Notes: generated by a model from the sequence alone, not told the origin. 63,860 nucleotides of DNA, filler included, from Lenisia limosa (GCA_001655205.1; 16 parts of 16 records of this genome joined end to end with filler, not necessarily neighbours in it), one strand, 5' to 3'; positions 8,398-55,620 are shown, counted from the whole stretch's first letter. Made by a program: numbers and translations.

Positions 8398-10478
<2,081 letters not shown>

Positions 10479-11809: not shown

Positions 11810-12480
11810 ACAGATGCAGTATCTTTGTATTGCTCTCGGCGTCCATGTCAACTCATCCATATCGGTAAGCCCTAGAATAAAAATGTCTAATGACCGGGAT
11901 AAGTCTTTTCATGAGAGCTTTGCGACGGCGAGTTTGTGAAGCCTTGATCTTGACAGGGGAGGCAAGGTGAGGTCCCTGGATAGATCCGCGCTTCGTTTTG
12001 TTCTGAGTTTTCCTCTCACTCTTCAACTCTTCAGGGTTGGCGATAACCTAAAAGAGTTAGTGTGAAAGCTATAAATACAATGATACGCCAATTTCAAAAC
12101 AAATGTACCTGTCCAGGCTTTAGTGCTTCCAGTTTCTCCCCTGGTTTGGTAACGTAGAACTGGCAGGGACGCTGTACGTCATCAATTGTAGGTCCAACTT
12201 GGCAGTTTCGATTTACATCACTTTCAATAAGTGTACGTGTATAGAGTGAGGATGACTCAAAGACGCGTGGGTTCCGCAGGGACACGGAAGAAATGGTGGC
12301 CGCAACACCCTCCAAAAAGCTGCGATCTTCAGAGGAGAGCTCTTTTGTGTGGGGGTCATTCTTGAGGAAGGTTCTGGCACGGAGTCCAAGTGCCTGTTCA
12401 TACGCAAGGTCTCCATCTTCTTTAACTGCTTGGATAGAGCTGCGGAATTCTGCAGTTTGTCGAATTGTGGAGTGTTGAGG
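11810..12480 (-). CDS. Hypothetical protein, 3' exons (partial)
   Basis: Long stop-free exon (...RSSIQAVKEDGDLAYEQALGLRARTFLKND...KLEALKPGQ|gt), then ag|VIANPEELKSERK... No family recognised. Confidence 0.5.
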
Positions 12481-13046
12481 AATGTTGGTTCAGGGTTTTG
12501 AGATAAAGGTTGGGTGCATTTGGAGGTGCATGGATGTTGGAATGTGTGAAGANNNNNNNNNNNNNNNNNNNNNNNNNNNNNNNNNNNNNNNNNNNNTTAA
12601 TTAATTAANNNNNNNNNNNNNNNNNNNNNNNNNNNNNNNNNNNNNNNNNNNNAACAACAACAAAAAAAAAAAAAAAAGCAGGTTATCAAATATACTTCTA
12701 GTATTATTTCAATTCACCACATTTCAGTGAAACAACCCTCATATTTCTGTCAAATAATGTTAAGAATGAAACTCCTAGCAACTTTTGGAGAGATGTATTA
12801 TATGTATGTAATCATACGTATGTGAGATTAGAATGTTTCTATCAAGAAAAAAATAAAAACAATAATAATTTAGGCAATAATATAACAACTCGCAAGGAAT
12901 GATGTTGATGGCATTTTGAACTTATCAATGACACCACCCAAAACCACCACCACCATCACCACCACCATGCTACCACCACCACAAAACCACCATTCCACCA
13001 GCAGCATCATTAAATAAAAAGAGACGAGAACAGGCGTTGGCCCCAC

Positions 13047-16000
13047 CTGATGACTCGGACATCTGTGCAAGGTACTCGTAACCATAAACAACCACCGCGC
13101 TGTTATTAAAGGTCTGCATAAAGTCAACAATGCGCCTCGGAATTCCTAGAATAATGTGTCGCTTGCGGGAGTCTGTGGAGGGTGAATGGAGGGATAAGGG
13201 TGAATGTTGTATGAAGCAGACAATATTAAGTGGAATAAAATCACGAGAGAAACAACACACTTGATTGATAACAAAGAAAGCTGTGTGACAGGGGGGGGGG
13301 ACGAGTATAAAAAGTAGCAACAGGAAATAGAGATTTCTTTACTGTTCAAAACGCATTGAAGGCTATTTCTGGTTTGCGATTTTTTGTGAAATATATACTC
13401 ATCATTAATTTCTTCATTAGCTTATCATAATGGCCCTACCAAGTGTTAAAATAGTATATTGAAGCACACAGGCTACAGAACGATGAAGTTTGGTCATTGA
13501 AAGTTCTGTCTTATCTTTCCCTCGACGAAATGTCTCAGAGGCCGGGCTACGAAACGCTTGTACCCTGACCTCTCCGCCCGTTCCAGTCTGAGGCTATCGA
13601 CGCACTTCTCGATGATCGTGAGAGTGTTCTCATGATAGTTGGGACCGGTCAGGGCAAGTCTCTCGTTGCTCATGTAGGAGGGGGGTAGACATTGATTATC
13701 GTCCAGCTCATTGGACGAGCGGGTAGAAAGGCGTCAGCAAAGGGTCGTGAAATTGCCATCATCATGGAAGGACGGCGGACGGCGGAAGAAGACGAGAGGT
13801 ACAACATGCAGCAAGCTGTCCCAACGCACTGGACATTCAGGTACTCCAATGCTAGAATGATTCTACGGTATTTTTTATTAACTCTCAAGAGACTGTTTTA
13901 TTTACACTCAATACTAATCAATCATTTTAGAACAAGTCAATTTCAGACATTTCTGATTTTGAGCCCTCTCACGTCCAGTGCCTCTCAGTGGTATTGATTA
14001 AGGCTTATCAGAAAGCTCCAGAAATCACAGTGTATGCGAGCCTAGACGACGCAAAAATTGTGATGTCTTTGGTATGATGAACTGAAAGAAGAGGTTTTAG
14101 GGTCATCATCAAAACGCATTTAGATTCGCTCAATATAAGTCATAGCCTGAAATGGACGTATTTGATTTACGCTCAATGCTAAGTTGACTGTTTTCGTGTT
14201 CAGTGAGAGCTCTTGGGTGTTGGGTGTCAATCCACCCCTTTTAAGGACCGATCTTTGATCGAAGGAACTTCTGGGGAATTTTGTTTCTTACTTGCTGTAT
14301 TAACTGTTAACTAGCTGCTTACCTCCTGCTTACAGACAGAATTACAAGTTAATTCATGGCTTTTTATGATTACGTTTCTCTTGGAGCCTTAATTCTGCAG
14401 CAAATAGGTCACAGCCAACTTCAAGAAGGCGTTCAACGTCCATACAACAATATGCTATCCGTTCATTCTGTTGTTGGGTATATGCAGTTATATTACATAT
14501 CATATATATACACAAAATAGCTCATCATAATATATCATATGCTCAAGGTCCTAAATTATGTCGTTAATTAGTTACGGTCGCCAAATCAGCTATTCCCCTT
14601 CAAAACAGATATAATACACACTTTATATATTTATGAAGGGAAACAAAGAAAAAAAAACTTTCAAAAACGTTCATTGTGTTTTTGCAAGAACATCAAATTT
14701 GATAGCGATCTTTTTTCAGTGTATGCTCGCATTTTTCTCATATGTCCTTTTTTACGAGTCAAATTGTTGTGAAGTTGACCGTAACATGAAAAAGTCACAG
14801 AAAATTGAATTAACGACAATAATTCGAATTAACGACATAATTTAAGACCTTGAGCATATCATATTATAGATACTACAATGTAAGAGCATATCTGCCTTTC
14901 CGACTAATTTCCAACCTTCCATGAGGGCCAAAGAGCTACAGGTTTGGATGGCAAGGCACACGGGGCCCTCGCGCTCTATCCGATCCGCGTGTTTCAACGC
15001 CCAAATATCTATCTGTGGAGGGTGGGGGGCTAAATTCGAAAATTTATGAGAAAAAAAACCCCCAAATCAACTCTGTTGGCTGACAAGAGAACAAAAAAAA
15101 AAANNNNNNNNNNNNNNNNNNNNNNNNNNNNNNNNNNNNNNNNNNNNNNNNNNNNNNNNNNNNNNNNNNNNNNNNNNNNNNNNNNNNNNNNNNNNNNNNN
15201 NNNNNNNNNNNNNNNNNNNNNNNNNNNNNNNNNNNNNNNNNNNNNNNNNNNNNNNNNNNNNNNNNNNNNNNNNNNNNNNNNNNNNNNNNNNNNNNNNNNN
15301 NNNNNNNNNNNNNNNNNNNNNNNNNACAACAACAACAAAAAAAGAACTTTTTCTGTTCGAAGAAAATTTTTAACTCTGGCGGCGGATCATCATACCTTGG
15401 ATGAAATGAGGTCCGCTGATGCTTCTGCAGATTGGTTAATTTATTATGGGAAGATTGGAAATTAATCGGAGAATCCCCTGAACATGTGCTTACCAGGAGA
15501 GTACTCTGCAAGACAGCTAAACAGCTGGAAAGCGGCAGTGATGACACCTTCATTCTGGCTTTCTTTGACCAACGCAATTGCTTCGGTAATCATCTTCATA
15601 TCCAGTACTTTTGTTGCTGCGTCGGTGTCTGAGGGATGGTCATTATTGACACTTGGTCTCCGTGCAATTAATTGAAAAAATAATTGCAAAATTTGAAGTG
15701 CAACATATTGTAATGTAAACTCAATTTCAGACACTTTAATTTCAAATTTTGTCAAATGATTTCTTTAACAATTTAATTACACAGAACCCTGATTGACACC
15801 GATTCTACCGTAAAAAAAGTTAGACACAGTGACTGTGGTGAGTCCAGACCAATATTCCTTGGGAAATCATATAGCAAATCCGCCAAGACTTGAAAATGAT
15901 CTGTTTAAGCAATCTGCAAGCCCAAAATCATTTTACAATTGTTATTATCACCCCTCCCTCACTGGATATTATTCGGCGAATTGAACCGTACGCTGACTTT

Positions 16001-16312: not shown

Positions 16313-16816
16313 CACTAAAAGCGCTTCGTCGAGGAAAGAGCTCTGTACCAGAATTTCTCGGCATTCTAGAGTGTGATCTCAATGGTCATCCAGAAGTGAA
16401 ACTCAGATCATTGCTTCAAAGATGAAGTGAACTAGATTCAGATAATACATATCATGTCTCAGAAACATTAAAAGGTGTGTTGGATGTCTTTGGGATGTAA
16501 ACTTTCTTATTTTCTCATTTCTACATACCATAAGATATATTATCCCTAGTGTTTAGTATACAGCAATGAGAAAAAAAAACAAGGTTGTATCTGACCATTC
16601 TAGACAATGATCGCAATTCGAAGAGTTCAGAATTTTCCATTCTTTTAGATTATCAACAAATTATACAAATTATACGAAATTTAGACTTTCTGGNNNNNNN
16701 NNNNNNNNNNNNNNNNNNNNNNNNNNNNNNNNNNNNNTTAATTAATTAANNNNNNNNNNNNNNNNNNNNNNNNNNNNNNNNNNNNNNNNNNNNGGAGGGG
16801 GGGTTCTGATTATGTA

Positions 16817-17359: not shown

Positions 17360-20300
17360 GGTCAACAGTTCAAAAGTTGACAAGCCAATATGCAAAGAAA
17401 GCGGCATTATTGTTTCCTTATCTTCTTTAGTTCTCCTGCAGGGCCAACCTCATTGACGAAACAAACAAGGAAATTGCCTCCTTTGAACACGAATTTGAAA
17501 ATGGCGTCCTGATGCTGAAGGTACAAATAATAGGCTCATACCTTTATGTAATTACATAAAAATGATATGTGCATAGTTTTTGCGTTCTCTATTGGAACTA
17601 TGTGAATGAGTTACGGTTGATATATCACAGTTATACATATACTCACGGTCCTAAATGGTGTCATTATTTCCGAAATGGTGTCATTAATTCGGAAAAGGTG
17701 TTGTGAACCCCTCTATTTTCCTTCAGGTTTTTTTTATCAAACCTTGTTCACCTCCTCCCCAGTTTCGTATCAAAACTACAAAATATTGCCGTTAAAAACT
17801 AAAAACTAAAAAAAAAAAAACATTTTTCCATAAAACTCATCAAATACCAATTACATCAAAACACAAAACAATACCAGCTGCCATCATTGGAATGCAAACT
17901 AAATTGGTCAATAGTCATCATCAAACTGGAATCCAAAAAATCGAATCGGGCTATCCAAACATAAAATCAGGCTTTCTTTTGCTTTTTGCTGGCTTCTTGG
18001 CCTCACGATCAGCTGCTCGCTTGGCTTGACGCCTTCACACCGCCCTTTTTGACGGCTGTCAAGTGGTTGATGATGGCGCCATTTGATATGTCAAGTGCAG
18101 CTGCGCGTAGAGGTGTGACTTTGACCTCGGTCTCCTTGCAAATGACCTAGAGTAGTTAAAGAGGAAGGGTACTAAAATGCAATATCTTTTGAAAGAGCTG
18201 TAATAAAGAGACAAAAGGAAGCATACAAATATGCCCCTGACAAACTTCTCCATAGATTATTGTCATTGAAGAACTTTCTCTAACCGGTTTCACGAGTGGA
18301 TGTCTTGTTGCCGCTATCTACCTGTCGGTAGGCGACCTGTACGAGATTGTTCTCGTCAATTGACAGGTCTGCTAAGCGGAGAATAGTTTGTTGGCTGCTT
18401 AGTCGTGACCCGTCTTCTCCTGTCATAGCGAACATTGCCTACATTTGTGATTCAGAGTAGGATATTATGGTTGCCTTATCCAGGCCAACAATATTAAAGA
18501 ATACTTCCCTCCCGCGAGGCCTAGATCATTTGAATTATCTGTCCCCTACCAAATACGCGGATCTGGACACTGAAGTTGTGAACGGTACAATATCGTTGCC
18601 GAGTGGTAGCATCTCAATTATCGACATCAGCCTATCAAATGGTAAGTATTCGGTGAAGTACTTAGGCGACCCCAGATGAAGTTGTGACAAGTTTACTAAT
18701 GCAACCTACAAACCTCACAAATTCTGGGCCTGTCAGGGGCGGTTCTCCTCCTCCCGCCGGGAGCTCGTCCCTACCAGGAAGTACTCCGTCCTCGAGCTTG
18801 GACACCGCACTGTTACGCCTCCTATTGAACTTCTGACTGTTAGTGATCCATAAAACACAATACAAAACACTACAACCAGACTCACCTGTCTCGACATCTT
18901 CTTGGACTCTGAAAAAAGATCATCGAAACGGGCCTTATAAGCGGGAAGGGACATGGCCTTGACAATGAGAGTTTATGTGCTCTTCAGAAGCAACAACAGC
19001 ATGGCTTAGCTCCTATACACGGGTTAATACAGCTGGAAATTCCACAGAGGTTGCAGCAAGCATCTTTAAAAAAGGCAGCATTATCGGAACCTTCTGGTAC
19101 AAGATTGGAGGCCTGTCAAATATAAGCGTTCCTTCGGGCTTGGTAGTATTGATGTCAGTCAAAGCAGTTGACTTCTCAAGGATTGTGGGTTTACACAACA
19201 TTTTGATAAGAGCGGGGGTTCGAGGGTAGAGGTTTGGTGCATGGACAGGAGCAGTGAAGGTAAGTAGTTTCTTGAGGTATTGAGTGGTGACGGAGGTCAA
19301 AATATGGAGCCTTTCACGTACATACTGGCTGGAATCTTCATTGGATTATACCCATTGAGCTCATAGCCGCACAACTTTTGGGATGCTCTGATGACAACAG
19401 TGCTTGGAGTAGCCATTGCTTCGGCAATACTACCAGAGACCTCTTCCTCCTTCATAGCTCTGAAAAATTACCCTCAGTATCAAATCATGATGAGTAGAAT
19501 TATAGAGCCATCTTATGATAGTATGGAAATGAGGTCATAATAATCAGATAATCACTCATAGTGCGTACATACCTTCCAGCATAGGCCTTTTTCCACTCAG
19601 CAATTAAGGAATAGACACAGTGGTTTACTTTTGCATGCCAATGCGAATCTGCAACCTACTTAAGTAAAAACAAATTGTCGCGAAAGGAAAATAGCAAATA
19701 TTGAACTGAAGTAGATTATACCTGGAGGAAGTGGCTGGTGGATGCAAGCTCGATGATAAGAATAACACAATAGAGCAAGAAGATAGAAAAGCACACCTTA
19801 ATGATTGTTACAAAAACAAAGAAAATGAAAATAGCAGGTGATACTTACCTCAATCGACACATGAATCCGAGCCCCATTGCCATTCATGATGATAAAGTCG
19901 TGCGGAGAAGAGCGTTTTATTCTTGCGACGGACTCAATGCAATGGAGAAATCCCTCAGTGGAAAAGTACGCTGAAGAATTGACCCCAGTGGCAAACATAT
20001 TCCATTCTTCGGCCGCAGCAATTGACTCGGGTTTAGGAGTAAAAAGGACAGGGTTCTCCATAACGTTGTTGTCTCTCAGCCATTGGAGAATCTTTCTTGT
20101 TTCGTCTTAATCAGCTGCACTAAGCTTAGGAAGATACTCCTTGGAGGATGGTGGGGCTTTTTGCTCACGGGCACAGGATTCCTGATGATACAATTTCACC
20201 TGAAAGACTTGTAACAGTGACGGCAGAAGCCATGGGGTCGTTCTCGATGTCCCTGAACACTTCACACATCCAGGCGTTCTCGTCATAAAAGAGAATCCGT

Positions 20301-23177
20301 TGGTTCTCAAGCTCAATTTCTAGGGTTGTTGAATCAAGAAGGGGAATCCACTTGTCGATCAAAGACAGAATATTAGCCTCGTTGTTGGGCTCCTTGATGG
20401 ACTAAAGTATAAAAAGGTCAATAGACAATGAAGATCCATAATCACACGCTTAGTATTAGTTGCACACAAGAAATAATCGCAATAATAAAAAAGAGTTTAC
20501 AATCAACCTCTTCAGTTTCTAATACAAGTTGCTTGGATTCCATGCCAAGTTTTTTGTAGCTTCCTTCTTATACTGCTTGAGCTCAGTTGAGAAGGGGATG
20601 GGGACAGGACTCGCTCAATAATTAAAACAATTGGAAATGTATCTAGTGTTGTGAAATACATATCTCTCTTAACATACCAACGTCTTTGGAGTCGATTTTT
20701 GAAAGTAAACCGGAAATTTGGATCTGGACACTTCTTCCATAGTCACAGCAATACTGTAGGTACGGATTGCAGTCTCGGTTTTGGCATCACGAGAAGTCAC
20801 CTTGCTAACTAACTGCCTTGGCAATATGCCGACCAATACGAAGTCCAGCGTTGTACAAGCGAGCCATTTGTAGGGTACTCTCAGGCTACAAAGACGATTA
20901 ATTTTAATAGATAACAACCACATAACGCATTATAAATTACAACTAACTAATAGCTCATATTCAATTCCATTCAAAATAGCTCAAAAACAACTTAAATTGC
21001 AAAATCATATTCCTTGAATATAAAGGCAAAAGTAACTTCAATCATTTTCCTTACCTGCGTTTTCTCTTGCCGTTGACGATCAAGGTCAAAGGGAACACGT
21101 TTCTGAACTTTTAAGCGGATTTCCTTTGCTTTATTTGCCGATCCCCTCCCCATAGAGTCGTTTTCTTGAAGTTTGGCAACGATGATTTCAAGCCTTATTG
21201 AACACCAAGCTAATTTGTTAGAATAATCCAGGAAATTACGTACAAATATCAAAAGTCTTACCGATTGTAACTTTTTGCACGTTTCTTCAGCCGTGGTTTC
21301 CATCCAAAGGATGGGCTCATTTGAGTCTTGTTCAACACCAGTCCAAGCATTCTCAAGCTCAGGAAAGTCTGTAGTAAAGTGGCTTTCTACAGGTTTTTGA
21401 CCGCGAGACCATATTAATGGTTCTAAAACTAAAAAATAAAGAAGGCTCCAATACTTACAGTGTGATAGACGAGCACCAAAACAACGGTTTTTCAGAAAGA
21501 AGGCCTTTCCACTTCCAAGTGAGGTAAGTACATATACTGTAAGAATATAAAATGTTCTACAGCGATTAATCCAACTAAAATGGCTTTTCAAAAAATGGCA
21601 AAAAAGAAAAATTTGCGCCACGCTTGCGCGCAATCCCAAATTTTACTATACTCCAGTTTTTATGTTTCTACGCTGATTTAGTAGGTTTTCAACTTTTTTT
21701 TTTTTAATCTATTTAAATCAATGCAGAAAAATAAAAAAGAAGCCTTTTTTTTGCAAAAGTACCACACCAATTAGGACCGTGAGCATATATGCTTCCACTT
21801 ATCTTCTGCTATTTTCAACAGATGTCTGTAGGTTTCACTTTTTCTGTTCTTTGTCATTTTCTTTCTGTCTTGTCTTCTTGTTTCTTTCCTTTGTTGGAGT
21901 CAGTTTCGGCGTTGCATTTGTCGCCAAGATTGAAATATGGAACTCTTAAATCGATTTGTTTCACACATAATAATTCAAAAAGACACGTAAGACCAAAATA
22001 CTTCCAAAAACAATAACAAACGGGGGAAAGCAATAACATAGTTACTTGCCCCAATTTTCCATTTTTACTCCCCAACCAACAGAATTGATTTTGGGCCATT
22101 TTTTCAAAATTGTCCAATTTTACTCTCTAGGGCAATACAATTCTGGAGCGAGCCGGAACGTTCAAAACCCGGGTGATCATCACGAACAACGCTAAACATT
22201 TCAAGCACTTCCCCATTGAGGCTCTTGAGAAGGAAGTTATTTGTATCATCAAACCCGCAGGTAGGTGCAAGTGTTAGGATGATGATATGTATGAGTGGTT
22301 GCTTATAAGATGATGATGGGAGTATGGGAGTGGTGGTAGTTTTTAATGATAGTGGGGGGTTAAAGATGATTACAGAAGTTGTTGTTTTAAAAGCAAGAGA
22401 GCAAGTTGTTTGTGATTGTCAAAGTGACCATAATCTTCGTTAAATTCTAGTAAACAGTAGTTAAAAATGTCACCGAAACTCTTTGTTCGGAAATCCGTAA
22501 CAATTTTCTGGGTTGGCACCCTGCTTTAATCCCCCCCAGGCCCCGAGACAATGCAGCTTCTTGTTGAGGAAACGATGAAGTCGTTCAGCACTAATGAGTG
22601 GGTAAGGGGAGGGGGTTATAATGGACAATATTCATATTATCTCTTTTATTTGGATATTTCGTTTTCATGCACATTTACTTTCCGCCATTATTGTTGCGTA
22701 TTCCCTTCCTCAATTGTTACTTATGATACCCCATAGAAGCGGCAGAACCCTCATCAAGGCTGGAACTGACGTTGTCTATAAGGACGCTTTCGGGAACATT
22801 TGCTCGTATTTAGGGGTTATGTGGAAGTATTATATGTTACAGTGACCGGGATAAGTCTTGACCGATTTGCTATTTGATGAAAAAATTCTTTAGTATTTAT
22901 ACTCGTTTTATTTCCTTTTTTAATATATTAAACACTCAAGCGATCAAGTGCACATGTATGGTCGTGATATATCATATCCTCAATTCAAACTATTTTATAT
23001 GATCATTTTCTTACTTCTCCAGTCCAAGATTATGAAAATTCTGAAAGTGAAGCTTTGCCCATATCTAACCTCTCTAGTGGAATCAATGACGATGAAGTTA
23101 TCTTCTCAGCTGAGCTGGTTGACACCCCCGGGGAAATTGACCTCTTGAATCTCACCTCTGTGCCTCTGAGAAGAACT
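17360..23177 (+). CDS. Hypothetical protein with filamin/Ig-like repeat features; host gene of the 4.1-kb transposon
   Basis: The exon ending ...FEHEFENGVLMLK|gt at 17520 joins in phase 0 to ag|GNTILERAGTFKTRV at 22131. Later exons include TLIKAGTDVVYKDAFGN (AG....KD.FGN is filamin/Ig-like). Domain call is tentative. Confidence 0.55.
17967..19300 (-). pseudogene. Unidentified coding segments downstream of the transposase core (C-terminal extension or second ORF)
   Basis: Open segments 19013-19300, ~18870-18954, ~18270-18440 and ~17967-18145, ending in a Lys-rich tail (AKKPAKSKKKA-stop). Interrupted by stops and frame changes. Confidence 0.4.
19297..21520 (-). pseudogene. Intron-containing DDE_1 (pogo/CENP-B-like) transposase, decayed
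   Basis: Spliced motifs QRILFYDEN (first D), NSSAYFSTEGFLHCIE, FIIMNGNGAR (second D replaced by N), STSHFLQVADS (third D) and TPSTVVIRASQKLCGYELNGYNP follow DDE_1 order. In-frame TAA near 20107 and frameshifts. Confidence 0.75.
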
Positions 23178-23359
23178 GTGGGGNNNNNNNNNNNNNNNNN
23201 NNNNNNNNNNNNNNNNNNNNNNNNNNNTTAATTAATTAANNNNNNNNNNNNNNNNNNNNNNNNNNNNNNNNNNNNNNNNNNNNATTCTCTGAGTCACTTG
23301 TACGTAACCCCCCCTTTCTCATCATAATATCAAGCATCCCTCACTTCGCTACATACTCA

Positions 23360-54179: not shown

Positions 54180-55620
54180 TCACACAACAACTAGAGAATG
54201 TGGTCCTGTATACCCTTGTATTTTTGTATACCCCAGATACATACCTTGTCTCTTCAGACGCTCTTCTTCCTTCTTCTTAGCGGTGAGCTCAGCTTTGATC
54301 TCTTCAATCATCCGCTTCCTTCGGTCTTCAGGCGTAATTANNNNNNNNNNAGGAATCATAAAAAGCAACCTCAGCTTCTGTCAACTCATCTCTCACCAAA
54401 GCTATTGCTTCCCATCCTTGCCGGGAAATAGCAGGATCTTGAGATTTGGCAACTTTGAGGTGCTGAATGATGATGGGAGTGTTTATCACACAGGAGTATA
54501 GTGCAGAACGGGGTGGAGGGCAAAGAGGTACGGAAAATGCGCCTTCGGGATTGGGTAAGTGGGCAGCAAGGCGAGAGGGGTCAATCGTCACTTCATTTTT
54601 ACCGCGACTTATTACAATTCCAGCAGCAGAGAACGCGTTGTCTACATGATCAGGATGAGTTNNNNNNNNNNAGAATCATAAAAAGCAACCTCAGCTTCTG
54701 TCAACTCATCTCTCACCAAAGCTTGCCGGGAAATAGCAGGATCTTGAGATTTGGCAACTTTCAGGTGCTGAATGATGATGGGAGTGTTTATCACACAGGA
54801 GCAAAGTGCAGAACGGGGTGGAGGGCAAAGAGGTACGGAAAATGTGCCTTTGGGATTGGGAAAGTGGGCAGCAAGGCGAGAGGGGTCGATAGTCACTTCA
54901 TTTTTGCCGCGACTTATTACAATTCCAGCAGCAGAGAACGCGTTGTCTACATGATCAGGATGAGTTGCAATATAAAACGCTTTTAAGCATGCTTTCAAGG
55001 CGCAACAGCGATTGTGGGCAGTTTTTTTGACTCCTTCAGGGATTGGTGATGATAGTAATTGAGTAAGTTCGCTTCTCATTGACCTCTNNNNNNNNNNNNN
55101 NNNNNNNNNNNNNNNNNNNNNNNNNNNNNNNNNNNNNNNNNNNNNNNNNNNNNNNNNNNNNNNNNNNNNNNNNNNNNNNNNNNNNGATGAGTGCGGCAGC
55201 GGTATCCGGTGGCAAGTTGAGTTGACGGCGCTTGGCCTCTACTGCAGGGACGAAGTAGTCATGTATCCAGGTACAGAATGATTCACCCGTCTGAATTATG
55301 AAAAACCGACCAAGTAGATATTCTCTATTTATCACCACAAACTTGCCAGCCATTTGGAGATTCAATAACCTTCGCTGAGTTAGTCTCAAGAATTGTTCGC
55401 TCTGTCGAAACGGTCTTATGGCCAAGCAAAAAGACAGGAGGGACCCTCGCATCATCGATAACAGTAGTGTGAGAGCTAGAATAGTAAAAAAAATTGTGAT
55501 AACTTTACCCCAAGTAACGCTTACCCAATTGTGCCAATCAAAGTGANNNNNNNNNNGATTCCAGAGTCCTTGAACTTGCGAATTTGTTTGCGACTGACCT
55601 GTCCAGTAAAGATTGTACTA
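54180..55620 (-). mobile_element. Second intron-containing DDE_1 (pogo-like) transposase, fragmented by gaps
   Basis: TLIGTIG|...PPVFLLG...SPNGWQ|TGESFCTWIHDYFVPAVEAKRRQLNLPPDTAAALI matches the DDE_1 pattern (N.SGW.T.E.F..W...F......ALLI). ATHPDHVDNAFSAAGI and a charged tail follow. GT-AG introns at ~55301-55352 and ~55480-55520. Confidence 0.8.

Follow-up and report, generated by a model that had tools for sequence, protein, structure and literature searches.

Genes with several introns are unusual among transposable elements of the IS630/Tc1/mariner/pogo group. According to the portion of Gao et al. 2020 available to us (PMC7386202), pogo elements are 1.2–5.2 kb long, carry either a single open reading frame (ORF) or two, produce TA (or TAA/TAAA) duplications, and encode transposases with a DD29-59D signature; the families of the superfamily are Tigger, pogoR, Passer, Lemi, Mover, and Fot, among which Mover is DD36D and has no DNA-binding domain detectable by hmmscan, and the word ‘intron’ occurs nowhere in the main text. 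The only intron-bearing group found in our literature search was TLEWI of bivalves, which, in the accessible part of Puzakov et al. (10.1101/656579), is Tc1-like and DD36E, has 2–5 introns, lacks terminal inverted repeats (TIRs), is present in low copy number, and is argued to be domesticated. Here, we describe an element at positions 17640–21785 of a 63,860-nt stretch of joined records from the draft genome of Lenisia limosa (GCA_001655205.1), the whole of which is referred to as the window. With a probability of roughly 0.78, it represents a decayed, TA-flanked TIR transposon carrying a nine-exon transposase gene on the minus strand, the product of which is probably related, at a distance, to the transposases of pogo (DDE_1-type) elements.

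The element resembles members of the pogo superfamily in its TIRs, its TA duplication, its length, which falls within the range given in the available text, and its DD36D signature, as in Mover; in addition, the motif TSHxLQxxD lines up with TSQCTQPLD of DDE_1 ORFs. In predicted fold, one relative, P0009, matches DDE_1 clusters, and another, P0001, falls under the bar. The element differs in having no exon-level DDE_1 match, eight conserved introns, a C-terminal region of ~280 residues in which no domain was recognised, and a D1–D2 spacing of ~145 residues (counted in P0001). Neither the window nor the N-terminal exons of its relatives L002–L004 gave a match to CENP-B_N, HTH_psq, or HTH_Tnp_Tc5 in hmmscan, and because the accessible text on Mover reports the same (PMC7386202), an undetected DNA-binding domain does not exclude pogo. 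The likeness to TLEWI, as far as the latter is described in the available text (10.1101/656579), lies in an IS630/Tc1/mariner-group transposase gene that is interrupted by several GT..AG spliceosomal introns, conserved in position between copies, and that yields spliced transcripts, whereas the present family has eight introns, a DD36D signature, TIRs with TA flanks, many copies, deleted derivatives, and a miniature inverted-repeat transposable element (MITE). It behaves as a real transposon. A full-text literature search returned no paper describing a pogo-like element that combines TIRs with many introns, and it is on this search that we base the statement that the family is apparently undescribed and uncatalogued.

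The ends of the element were read directly on both strands. The two 22-nt TIRs (Table 1) matched at 20 of 22 positions with a TA on both sides, and the inverted-repeat arms including the TA flank (17637–17661 and 21764–21788) were 25 nt long and 92% complementary. The 20-nt TIR core, CTCACGGTCCTAAWTGGTGT, occurred in the window at two exact sites and at one site with three mismatches, compared with an expectation of 0.01, and none of 100 shuffles reached three sites; the third site is part of the 317-bp MITE. The matching, TA-flanked TIRs noted in the preliminary description of this locus are therefore far beyond chance. CATATA is present on both sides of the main element and offers an alternative, longer duplication, but the flanks of the MITE fit only a 2-bp TA, and the duplication of the main element was accordingly assigned as TA. 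The combination of TIRs and a TA target-site duplication that marks pogo-type elements was thus found in the main element, and the MITE was TA-flanked too. The two subterminal direct repeats at the left end are likely binding sites of the transposase, although putative ones.

The transposase gene was modelled against the relatives L002, L003, and L004, and comprises nine exons separated by eight introns of 52, 169, 64, 106, 52, 66, 113, and 53 nt, in that order, all with GT..AG ends. The ATG of exon 1 (21412–21410) is offset by one base from the open frame downstream. The stretch from FYDEN to GxGARIH is a single exon, in which the relatives P0001 and P0002 read through the frame change of the window. 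In tblastn searches with the models of the relatives, exons 6–7 were matched at E 3e-5, and exon 9 yielded no match at E < 1 with the L003 model. For the ~1 kb between the likely stop codon and the left subterminal repeats (17690–18661), the models of the relatives gave nothing at E < 1 by tblastn (17640–18660), and there was no Pfam match. The multi-exon structure proposed earlier was borne out by a colinear, gap-free alignment with the three relatives and by RNA joints.

Three other candidates were considered and set aside while the model was built. A separate second gene starting from an ATG at ~18953 was recognised by eye only, and tblastn places exon 8 at 19459–18886. A homology of 18012–18438 to the C-terminus of the family was likewise seen by eye only, with no tblastn match at E < 1 in 17640–18660. 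An acceptor for exon 6 giving ‘PPD’ in another frame, suggested by likeness to the tails of P0009, P0013, and P0019, was dropped because L002 shows that these tails represent an out-of-frame reading of the following exon, beyond a 34-nt intron.

The relatives were retrieved in several ways. An exhaustive HMMER search with the longest piece of the window (117 residues, with the TAA as X) yielded 12 proteins at E ≤ 1e-3, 10 of which were true relatives (24–89% identical); the other two, P0003 and P0011, were bacterial repeat proteins and were rejected. A profile search raised the total to 18 proteins. All of them were unnamed singleton ORF fragments, 76–255 residues long, in metagenome assemblies of ENA and NCBI. 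No longer protein was returned by word-based searches, a PDB sequence profile found none, a metagenome scan with A3 and a viral scan returned nothing, and a metagenome scan with P0001 returned a single weak locus (L001, 43% over 33 residues). A scan of prokaryote-labelled genomes provided the three genomic relatives L002, L003, and L004 (contigs C79, C80, and C94, respectively), all from one metagenome-assembled genome (MAG; G001), and a search of that genome added a fourth family contig (L008, C49). Judging by their content, these contigs of a bacterial-labelled MAG are eukaryotic DNA. The L002 model has 8 exons, 7 GT..AG introns (34, 32, 34, 52, 30, 26, and 41 nt), and 625 open codons plus a stop, the L003 model has 7 exons, introns of 40–71 nt, and 606 open codons, and L004 has introns of 25–38 nt. 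The more distant L008 (C49, 1–190) is internally deleted, being devoid of exons 6–7 and the start of exon 8, and its 5' end carries a series of some eight direct repeats (TGTTATTACTGTTTGTTCGGC-like) in subterminal position.

The spliced segments of L002, L003, L004, and the window could be aligned without gaps from GVNxSxYF to CGYxxxG across three introns, the segment of the window being 34.8–39.8% identical to the others. Six intron positions and phases (after exons 3 to 8) were common to L002, L003, and the window; in L004, the contig of which ends at that point, the first five are present, together with two introns further upstream. The intron after exon 2 is common to the window and L004 in position and phase, and L004 also has an intron corresponding to the one after exon 1, where the exon match is weak and by eye only. 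In total, seven of the eight intron positions and phases of the window are common to relatives, and L002 has one extra intron of 26 nt that L003 does not have. The ORFs of the relatives reflect the same structure: among the 15 that reach the histidine after D2 (alignment A4), 12 stop 1–15 residues from the exon 5 boundary, two (P0013 and P0009) continue out of frame into the next exon, and P0008 diverges, and the read-through codon at the boundary was found in all 14 ORFs (V in 13, G in P0001). Because seven of eight positions and phases are common to relatives that are only 35–40% identical, the introns are, on the evidence of these alignments, old features of the family and not gained in this lineage. 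The preliminary description had instead proposed a lineage-specific family that acquired host-style tiny introns, which does not agree with the sharing of seven positions by distant relatives or with the lengths observed. At the same positions, the introns measure 26–52 nt in L002, 25–38 nt in L004, 40–71 nt in L003, and 52–169 nt in the window.

Sister copies in the same genome were examined using two public sequencing runs of one study, X1, which contains 88% of the sampled words of the stretch, and X2, a polyA RNA run; sister copies were compared as contigs at 80% likeness, and the copy information derives from the X1 contigs. A 1100-nt RNA contig of a sister copy (X2, depth 26.1) joined 19573 to 19459, skipping 113 nt with GT..AG ends on the minus strand, and this joint was present in X2 and in none of the X1 contigs. 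In a second RNA contig, the match ended at 19847 and was followed by letters resembling the start of exon 6 as a loose end, where a DNA contig continued with different, intron-like letters. These contigs show that sister copies are expressed as RNA and that one intron or more is spliced out of it. Regarding copy number, the word depth in X1 was ~30 for flanking single-copy DNA and 600–1000 for contigs 80–90% like the element over most of its length, and the reads of the genome contained many sister copies ~88–90% identical to it; the family is clearly multi-copy, with contig depth serving as a rough guide only. The stretch 18137–18906 was near single-copy depth while the rest of the element was highly repeated, and an RNA contig of the abundant subfamily had 385 letters where this copy has 1031, so the abundant form differs from this copy in that region.

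The catalytic triad of the window consists of D at 20284–20282 (FYDEN), N at 19878–19876 (GNGARIH), and D at 19649–19647 (LQVAD), with the roles assigned by register. The relatives have D/D/D, with D1 in FDE or YDE, D2 in GD(G/N)A(R/K)xH (e.g., GDGARIH), and D3 in TSHxLQVAD. The putative D2 and D3 are separated by 36 residues, rather than the ~38 first estimated, within the pogo criterion of 29–59. Because this signature is combined with TIRs and a TA duplication, the family can be placed in the IS630/Tc1/mariner/pogo group. Within that group, several lines of comparison point to pogo. The residues leading up to D3 align with TSQCTQPLD in bona fide DDE_1 ORFs from the same MAG (L009–L011, three partial sequences), and the best blastp, hmmsearch, and hhalign alignments to these ORFs pair the two D2 residues with each other and D3 with the D of QPLD. 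In the ESM Atlas, seven of nine structure rows obtained with P0009 reached the bar for PF03184 (TM 0.51–0.60), and 25 of 30 feature hits fell in the DDE_1 set (score 0.92); with P0001, 22 of 30 feature hits fell in that set, and the structure rows were under the bar. Overall, a link to pogo is likely, as suggested by motif register, the DD36D signature, the TA duplication, and predicted-structure and language-model similarity: the family probably works like pogo elements and is likely distantly related to them, with its membership unproven.

A number of results weigh against this assignment and against the gene model as applied to this copy. Among the sequence comparisons with DDE_1, none reached significance. 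The Pfam negatives hold for single exons or exon pieces: hmmscan of 14 + 9 window pieces gave no match to any Pfam model, DDE_1, HTH_psq, HTH_Tnp_Tc5, and CENP-B_N included, and no DDE_1 or helix-turn-helix (HTH) match was obtained in any of the 10 true relatives (12 hits scanned) or in 12 exon pieces of L002–L004. Even at E ≤ 10, DDE_1 was found in none of eight members, and DDE_3 in one of eight at E 0.13, short of the cut-off. The NCBIfam IS630 model (NF033545) matched one of eight at E 0.024 and was not reported as reaching its cut-off. A six-frame DDE_1 scan of G001 at E ≤ 10 picked out three contigs, none of them among the four that carry the family. A family hidden Markov model (HMM) scored at best 1.9 bits on real DDE_1 ORFs versus 5.1 bits for 900 shuffles, and hhalign to these ORFs gave P 0.1 and a probability of 0.6%, though in the expected register. 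The preliminary description had proposed an HMM search for DDE_1 and HTH_Tnp_Tc5, and had named the lack of a DDE_1 hit as counting against it; at exon level, no DDE_1 or HTH match was found, which is formally that outcome. Its statement that DDE_1 motifs are distributed over multiple short-intron exons thus held for the multiple exons and failed both for a Pfam DDE_1 match and for tiny introns (52–169 nt). As for structure, where all models span D1–D2 only, AF2 models of the D1–D2 exon (pLDDT 54.9 and 71.0) gave no Foldseek match in the PDB at E ≤ 1e-3, and VIA on the AF2 model of D1–D2 gave a best Z of 4.3, the top four rows being retroviral integrase cores, with Mos1 at Z 3.1 and Metnase at Z 3.0. 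On the RNA side, the joints derive from sister copies and not from this copy, one RNA contig (20837–21041, depth 4) is unspliced into intron 2 and could be pre-mRNA or DNA carry-over, and no intact family copy from this genome was seen among the X1 contigs. The RNA sequencing suggested earlier as a check therefore confirmed the host junction in full (see below) and the transposase junctions in part, with one intron removed and a second hinted at, in sister copies only.

These results leave room for a placement elsewhere in the group, in which the family would be of the Tc1/mariner or IS630 type (DDE_3), or a separate IS630/Tc1/mariner branch, using the same TA-targeting cut-and-paste mechanism. 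The sole matches to sequence models are indeed those to DDE_3 and NCBIfam IS630, the DDE_1 HMM fails on the family everywhere it was scanned, several ESM Atlas clusters carry DDE_1 and DDE_3 together, and the catalytic domains of Mos1 and Metnase are in the VIA list. We nevertheless consider this placement unlikely, as the third D, in TSHxLQVAD, aligns with TSQCTQPLD of the DDE_1 ORFs and not with the SPDLNPIE-type motif that surrounds the third residue in Tc1. The ESM Atlas structure rows over the bar with P0009 are DDE_1, not DDE_3, and DD36D lies inside the pogo range given in the part of the survey available (DD29-59D; PMC7386202). A distant relationship to pogo thus remains the preferred assignment.

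A second alternative is that the nine-exon gene is a domesticated host gene derived from a transposase and that the surrounding inverted repeats are coincidental. A conserved multi-intron structure is typical of host genes and, in the available text on TLEWI (10.1101/656579), serves as an argument for domestication, and L002 and L003 retain long intact reading frames. However, TIRs with TA flanks are far beyond chance, copies 80–90% alike are present at 600–1000 versus ~30 for the flanks, if only as a rough guide, there are, less than 6 kb away, a MITE whose ends are related and another, diverged fragment of the family, L008 has subterminal repeats and an internal deletion, and the present copy is antisense in the intron of another gene and full of frameshifts. 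Domestication is accordingly very improbable, and we continue to regard the element as a transposon.

This transposon copy has accumulated damage throughout its gene. In exon 2, one base is missing after 21199 relative to other copies, leading to an immediate in-frame TAA; exon 3 contains a 4-nt duplication (TTAG) at ~20808, which other copies do not have, and a second frameshift further on; and exon 4 has lost one base at 20549, where other copies have T. Exon 5 is frameshifted by a deletion of ~32 nt at 20177 (sister copies have 31 extra letters, one place being used twice), which removes residues present in P0002. The in-frame TAA recorded earlier, at 20107–20109 on the minus strand, is a true nonsense mutation of TCA, since other copies have TCA (T>G at 20108) and P0002 has Ser. 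The N of the D/N/D triad, also recorded earlier, is a true loss (D>N at 19876–19878), with D in all 13 relatives that reach that column in alignment A4. Exon 8 contains an in-frame TGA at 19299–19297 and at least two frame changes, and is ~111 nt shorter than in L002 and L003. Because of at least five frameshifts, several stop codons, and the D>N change at the second catalytic position, this copy cannot make transposase, and the preliminary judgement of ‘probably dead’ can be put more firmly. That the breaks instead reflect unusual decoding (TAA as Gln, as in ciliates) or a 16-nt intron at ~20200–20215 in a functional copy is scarcely credible: a 16-nt GT..AG stretch does lie exactly at the frame change, the TAA is in frame, and L002 and L004 do have introns of 25–38 nt, but P0001 and P0002 read straight through the supposed intron, the 31 extra letters of sister copies there encode the residues of P0002, sister copies have TCA (Ser) at the TAA site, the host exons and the models of the relatives are open under the standard code with standard stops, and host introns here measure 139–4610 nt.

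The insertion lies within a host gene. A 1965-nt RNA contig from X2 joined 17431–17518 straight to 22129–22257, followed by three further exons, and after two ambiguous bases were assigned, the host intron extends from 17521 to 22130 (GT..AG, 4610 nt). The five joined host exons have an open frame of 149 codons. Given this RNA contig, the GT..AG ends, and the open joined exons, the element is antisense in the 4610-nt host intron and is removed with it when the host RNA is spliced, in agreement with the initial report that host exons at 17520 and 22131 join in phase. As an insertion, the copy is dead and unremarkable, and no effect of it can be seen in the host transcript.

The interest lies in the family, not in this copy. 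An intact member would be expected to produce a protein of ~700 residues after splicing by the host; this transposase would bind the subterminal AAATGGTGTCATTA repeats as well as the 22-nt TIRs, mobilise the element by cut and paste via an RNase H-like DD36D active site, and insert it at a TA, which would be duplicated. At best, such a protein could act in trans to move the present copy and the 317-bp MITE. If a family has TIRs, many copies, transcripts, and eight conserved introns, this would show that a gene structure like that of the host can be maintained in the long term by an active cut-and-paste transposon. Prokaryote-style gene callers on metagenome contigs have reported the family only as unnamed ORF fragments, and because the Pfam transposase and HTH models are also blind to it, homology-based repeat annotation would probably miss it; L002 and L003, intact over 600 or more codons, supply the sequence set for a model with which to find it elsewhere. 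More tentatively, and at somewhat less than even odds, the family may represent a deep, uncatalogued pogo/IS630-Tc1-mariner branch that has kept 7–8 introns at fixed positions and phases while spreading among very different eukaryotic hosts, still behaving as a genuine TIR transposon, accompanied by MITEs and deletion derivatives, and with intron lengths re-tuned in each host. If so, it would be a mobile element obligatorily dependent on host splicing and a natural probe of intron-size adaptation after transfer.

Table 1. Features of the element, its host gene, and related pieces, in window coordinates
Feature	Position	Strand	Basis or remark
Host exon upstream of insertion	17431–17520	+	RNA contig
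Host exon downstream of insertion	22131–22257	+	RNA contig
TA flank, left copy of target-site duplication	17638–17639		
Left TIR (3' end relative to transposase gene)	17640–17661	+	
Two 20-nt subterminal direct repeats (TCCTAAATGGTGTCATTATT, second copy 90%)	17649–17688	+	Left end
Right TIR (5' end relative to transposase gene)	21764–21785	-	
TA flank, right copy	21786–21787		
Exon 1	21262–21412	-	Start uncertain; ends at donor GTAAGA; weak by-eye likeness to first exon of L004
Exon 2	21055–21209	-	Homology to L004 exon 2 by reading
Exon 3 (PESTLQMARLYNAG...)	20678–20885	-	Length equals that of L004 once 4 extra nt are removed
Exon 4	20508–20613	-	Phases as in L002, L003, L004
Exon 5, catalytic, D1 and D2 position	19849–20401	-	tblastn with models of relatives, E 1e-9 to 6e-14
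Exon 6, 25 codons, ...ELASTSHFLQ	19722–19796	-	Gap-free alignment
Exon 7, VADSHWHAKVN..., D3 at 19649–19647	19573–19655	-	tblastn and alignment
Intron 7, 113 nt, GT..AG	19460–19572	-	Removed in sister-copy RNA contig
Exon 8, C-terminal region	18886–19459	-	tblastn with L003 model: 19461–19213, E 4e-12; 19294–18977, E 2e-6
Exon 9 and stop codon (likely; weak similarity)	18662–18832	-	Frames and by-eye likeness to last exon of L003
317-bp MITE, TA flanks, 30-nt TIRs (TGCTCAAGGTCCTAAATT..., TGCTCAAGGTCCTAAATTATG...) akin to those of the main element	14540–14856		
3' fragment from a second, different lineage within this transposase family	11916–12550	-	Exon 8 part, 58-nt intron, exon 9

Two pieces related to the element are present nearby in the window (Table 1). 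The arms of the MITE, including the flanks, are 38 nt long and 95% complementary, and its subterminal repeats have the form AATTAACGACA; in its TA flanks and in TIRs like those of the coding element, as judged by comparing the ends, it resembles Stowaway-like or Tc1/mariner-derived MITEs. The 3' fragment of the second lineage was 50–68% identical to the L003 model (summed E 4e-52) and ends at an N run at 12553. Separately, 54355–55082 on the minus strand contains two adjacent pieces left over from another element, a bona fide DDE_1-type (pogo-like) one, which were matched in tblastn by the L009 and L010 ORFs at E 2e-15 to 1e-22; both ORFs pass the Pfam DDE_1 cut-off, and the window pieces themselves gave no Pfam match.

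As eukaryotic draft sequence, the window is rich in gaps, with 66 N runs. A fixed pattern of 44 N, 12 bases, and 44 N occurs 15 times in it (e.g., at 16694–16793 and 23184–23283), and its appearance is that of a masked or linker-type repeat and not of ordinary gaps in an assembly. Finally, an exon at 9745–10200 on the plus strand belongs to a gene resembling that of phenylalanyl-tRNA synthetase alpha (Pfam tRNA-synt_2d, E 2.4e-11).

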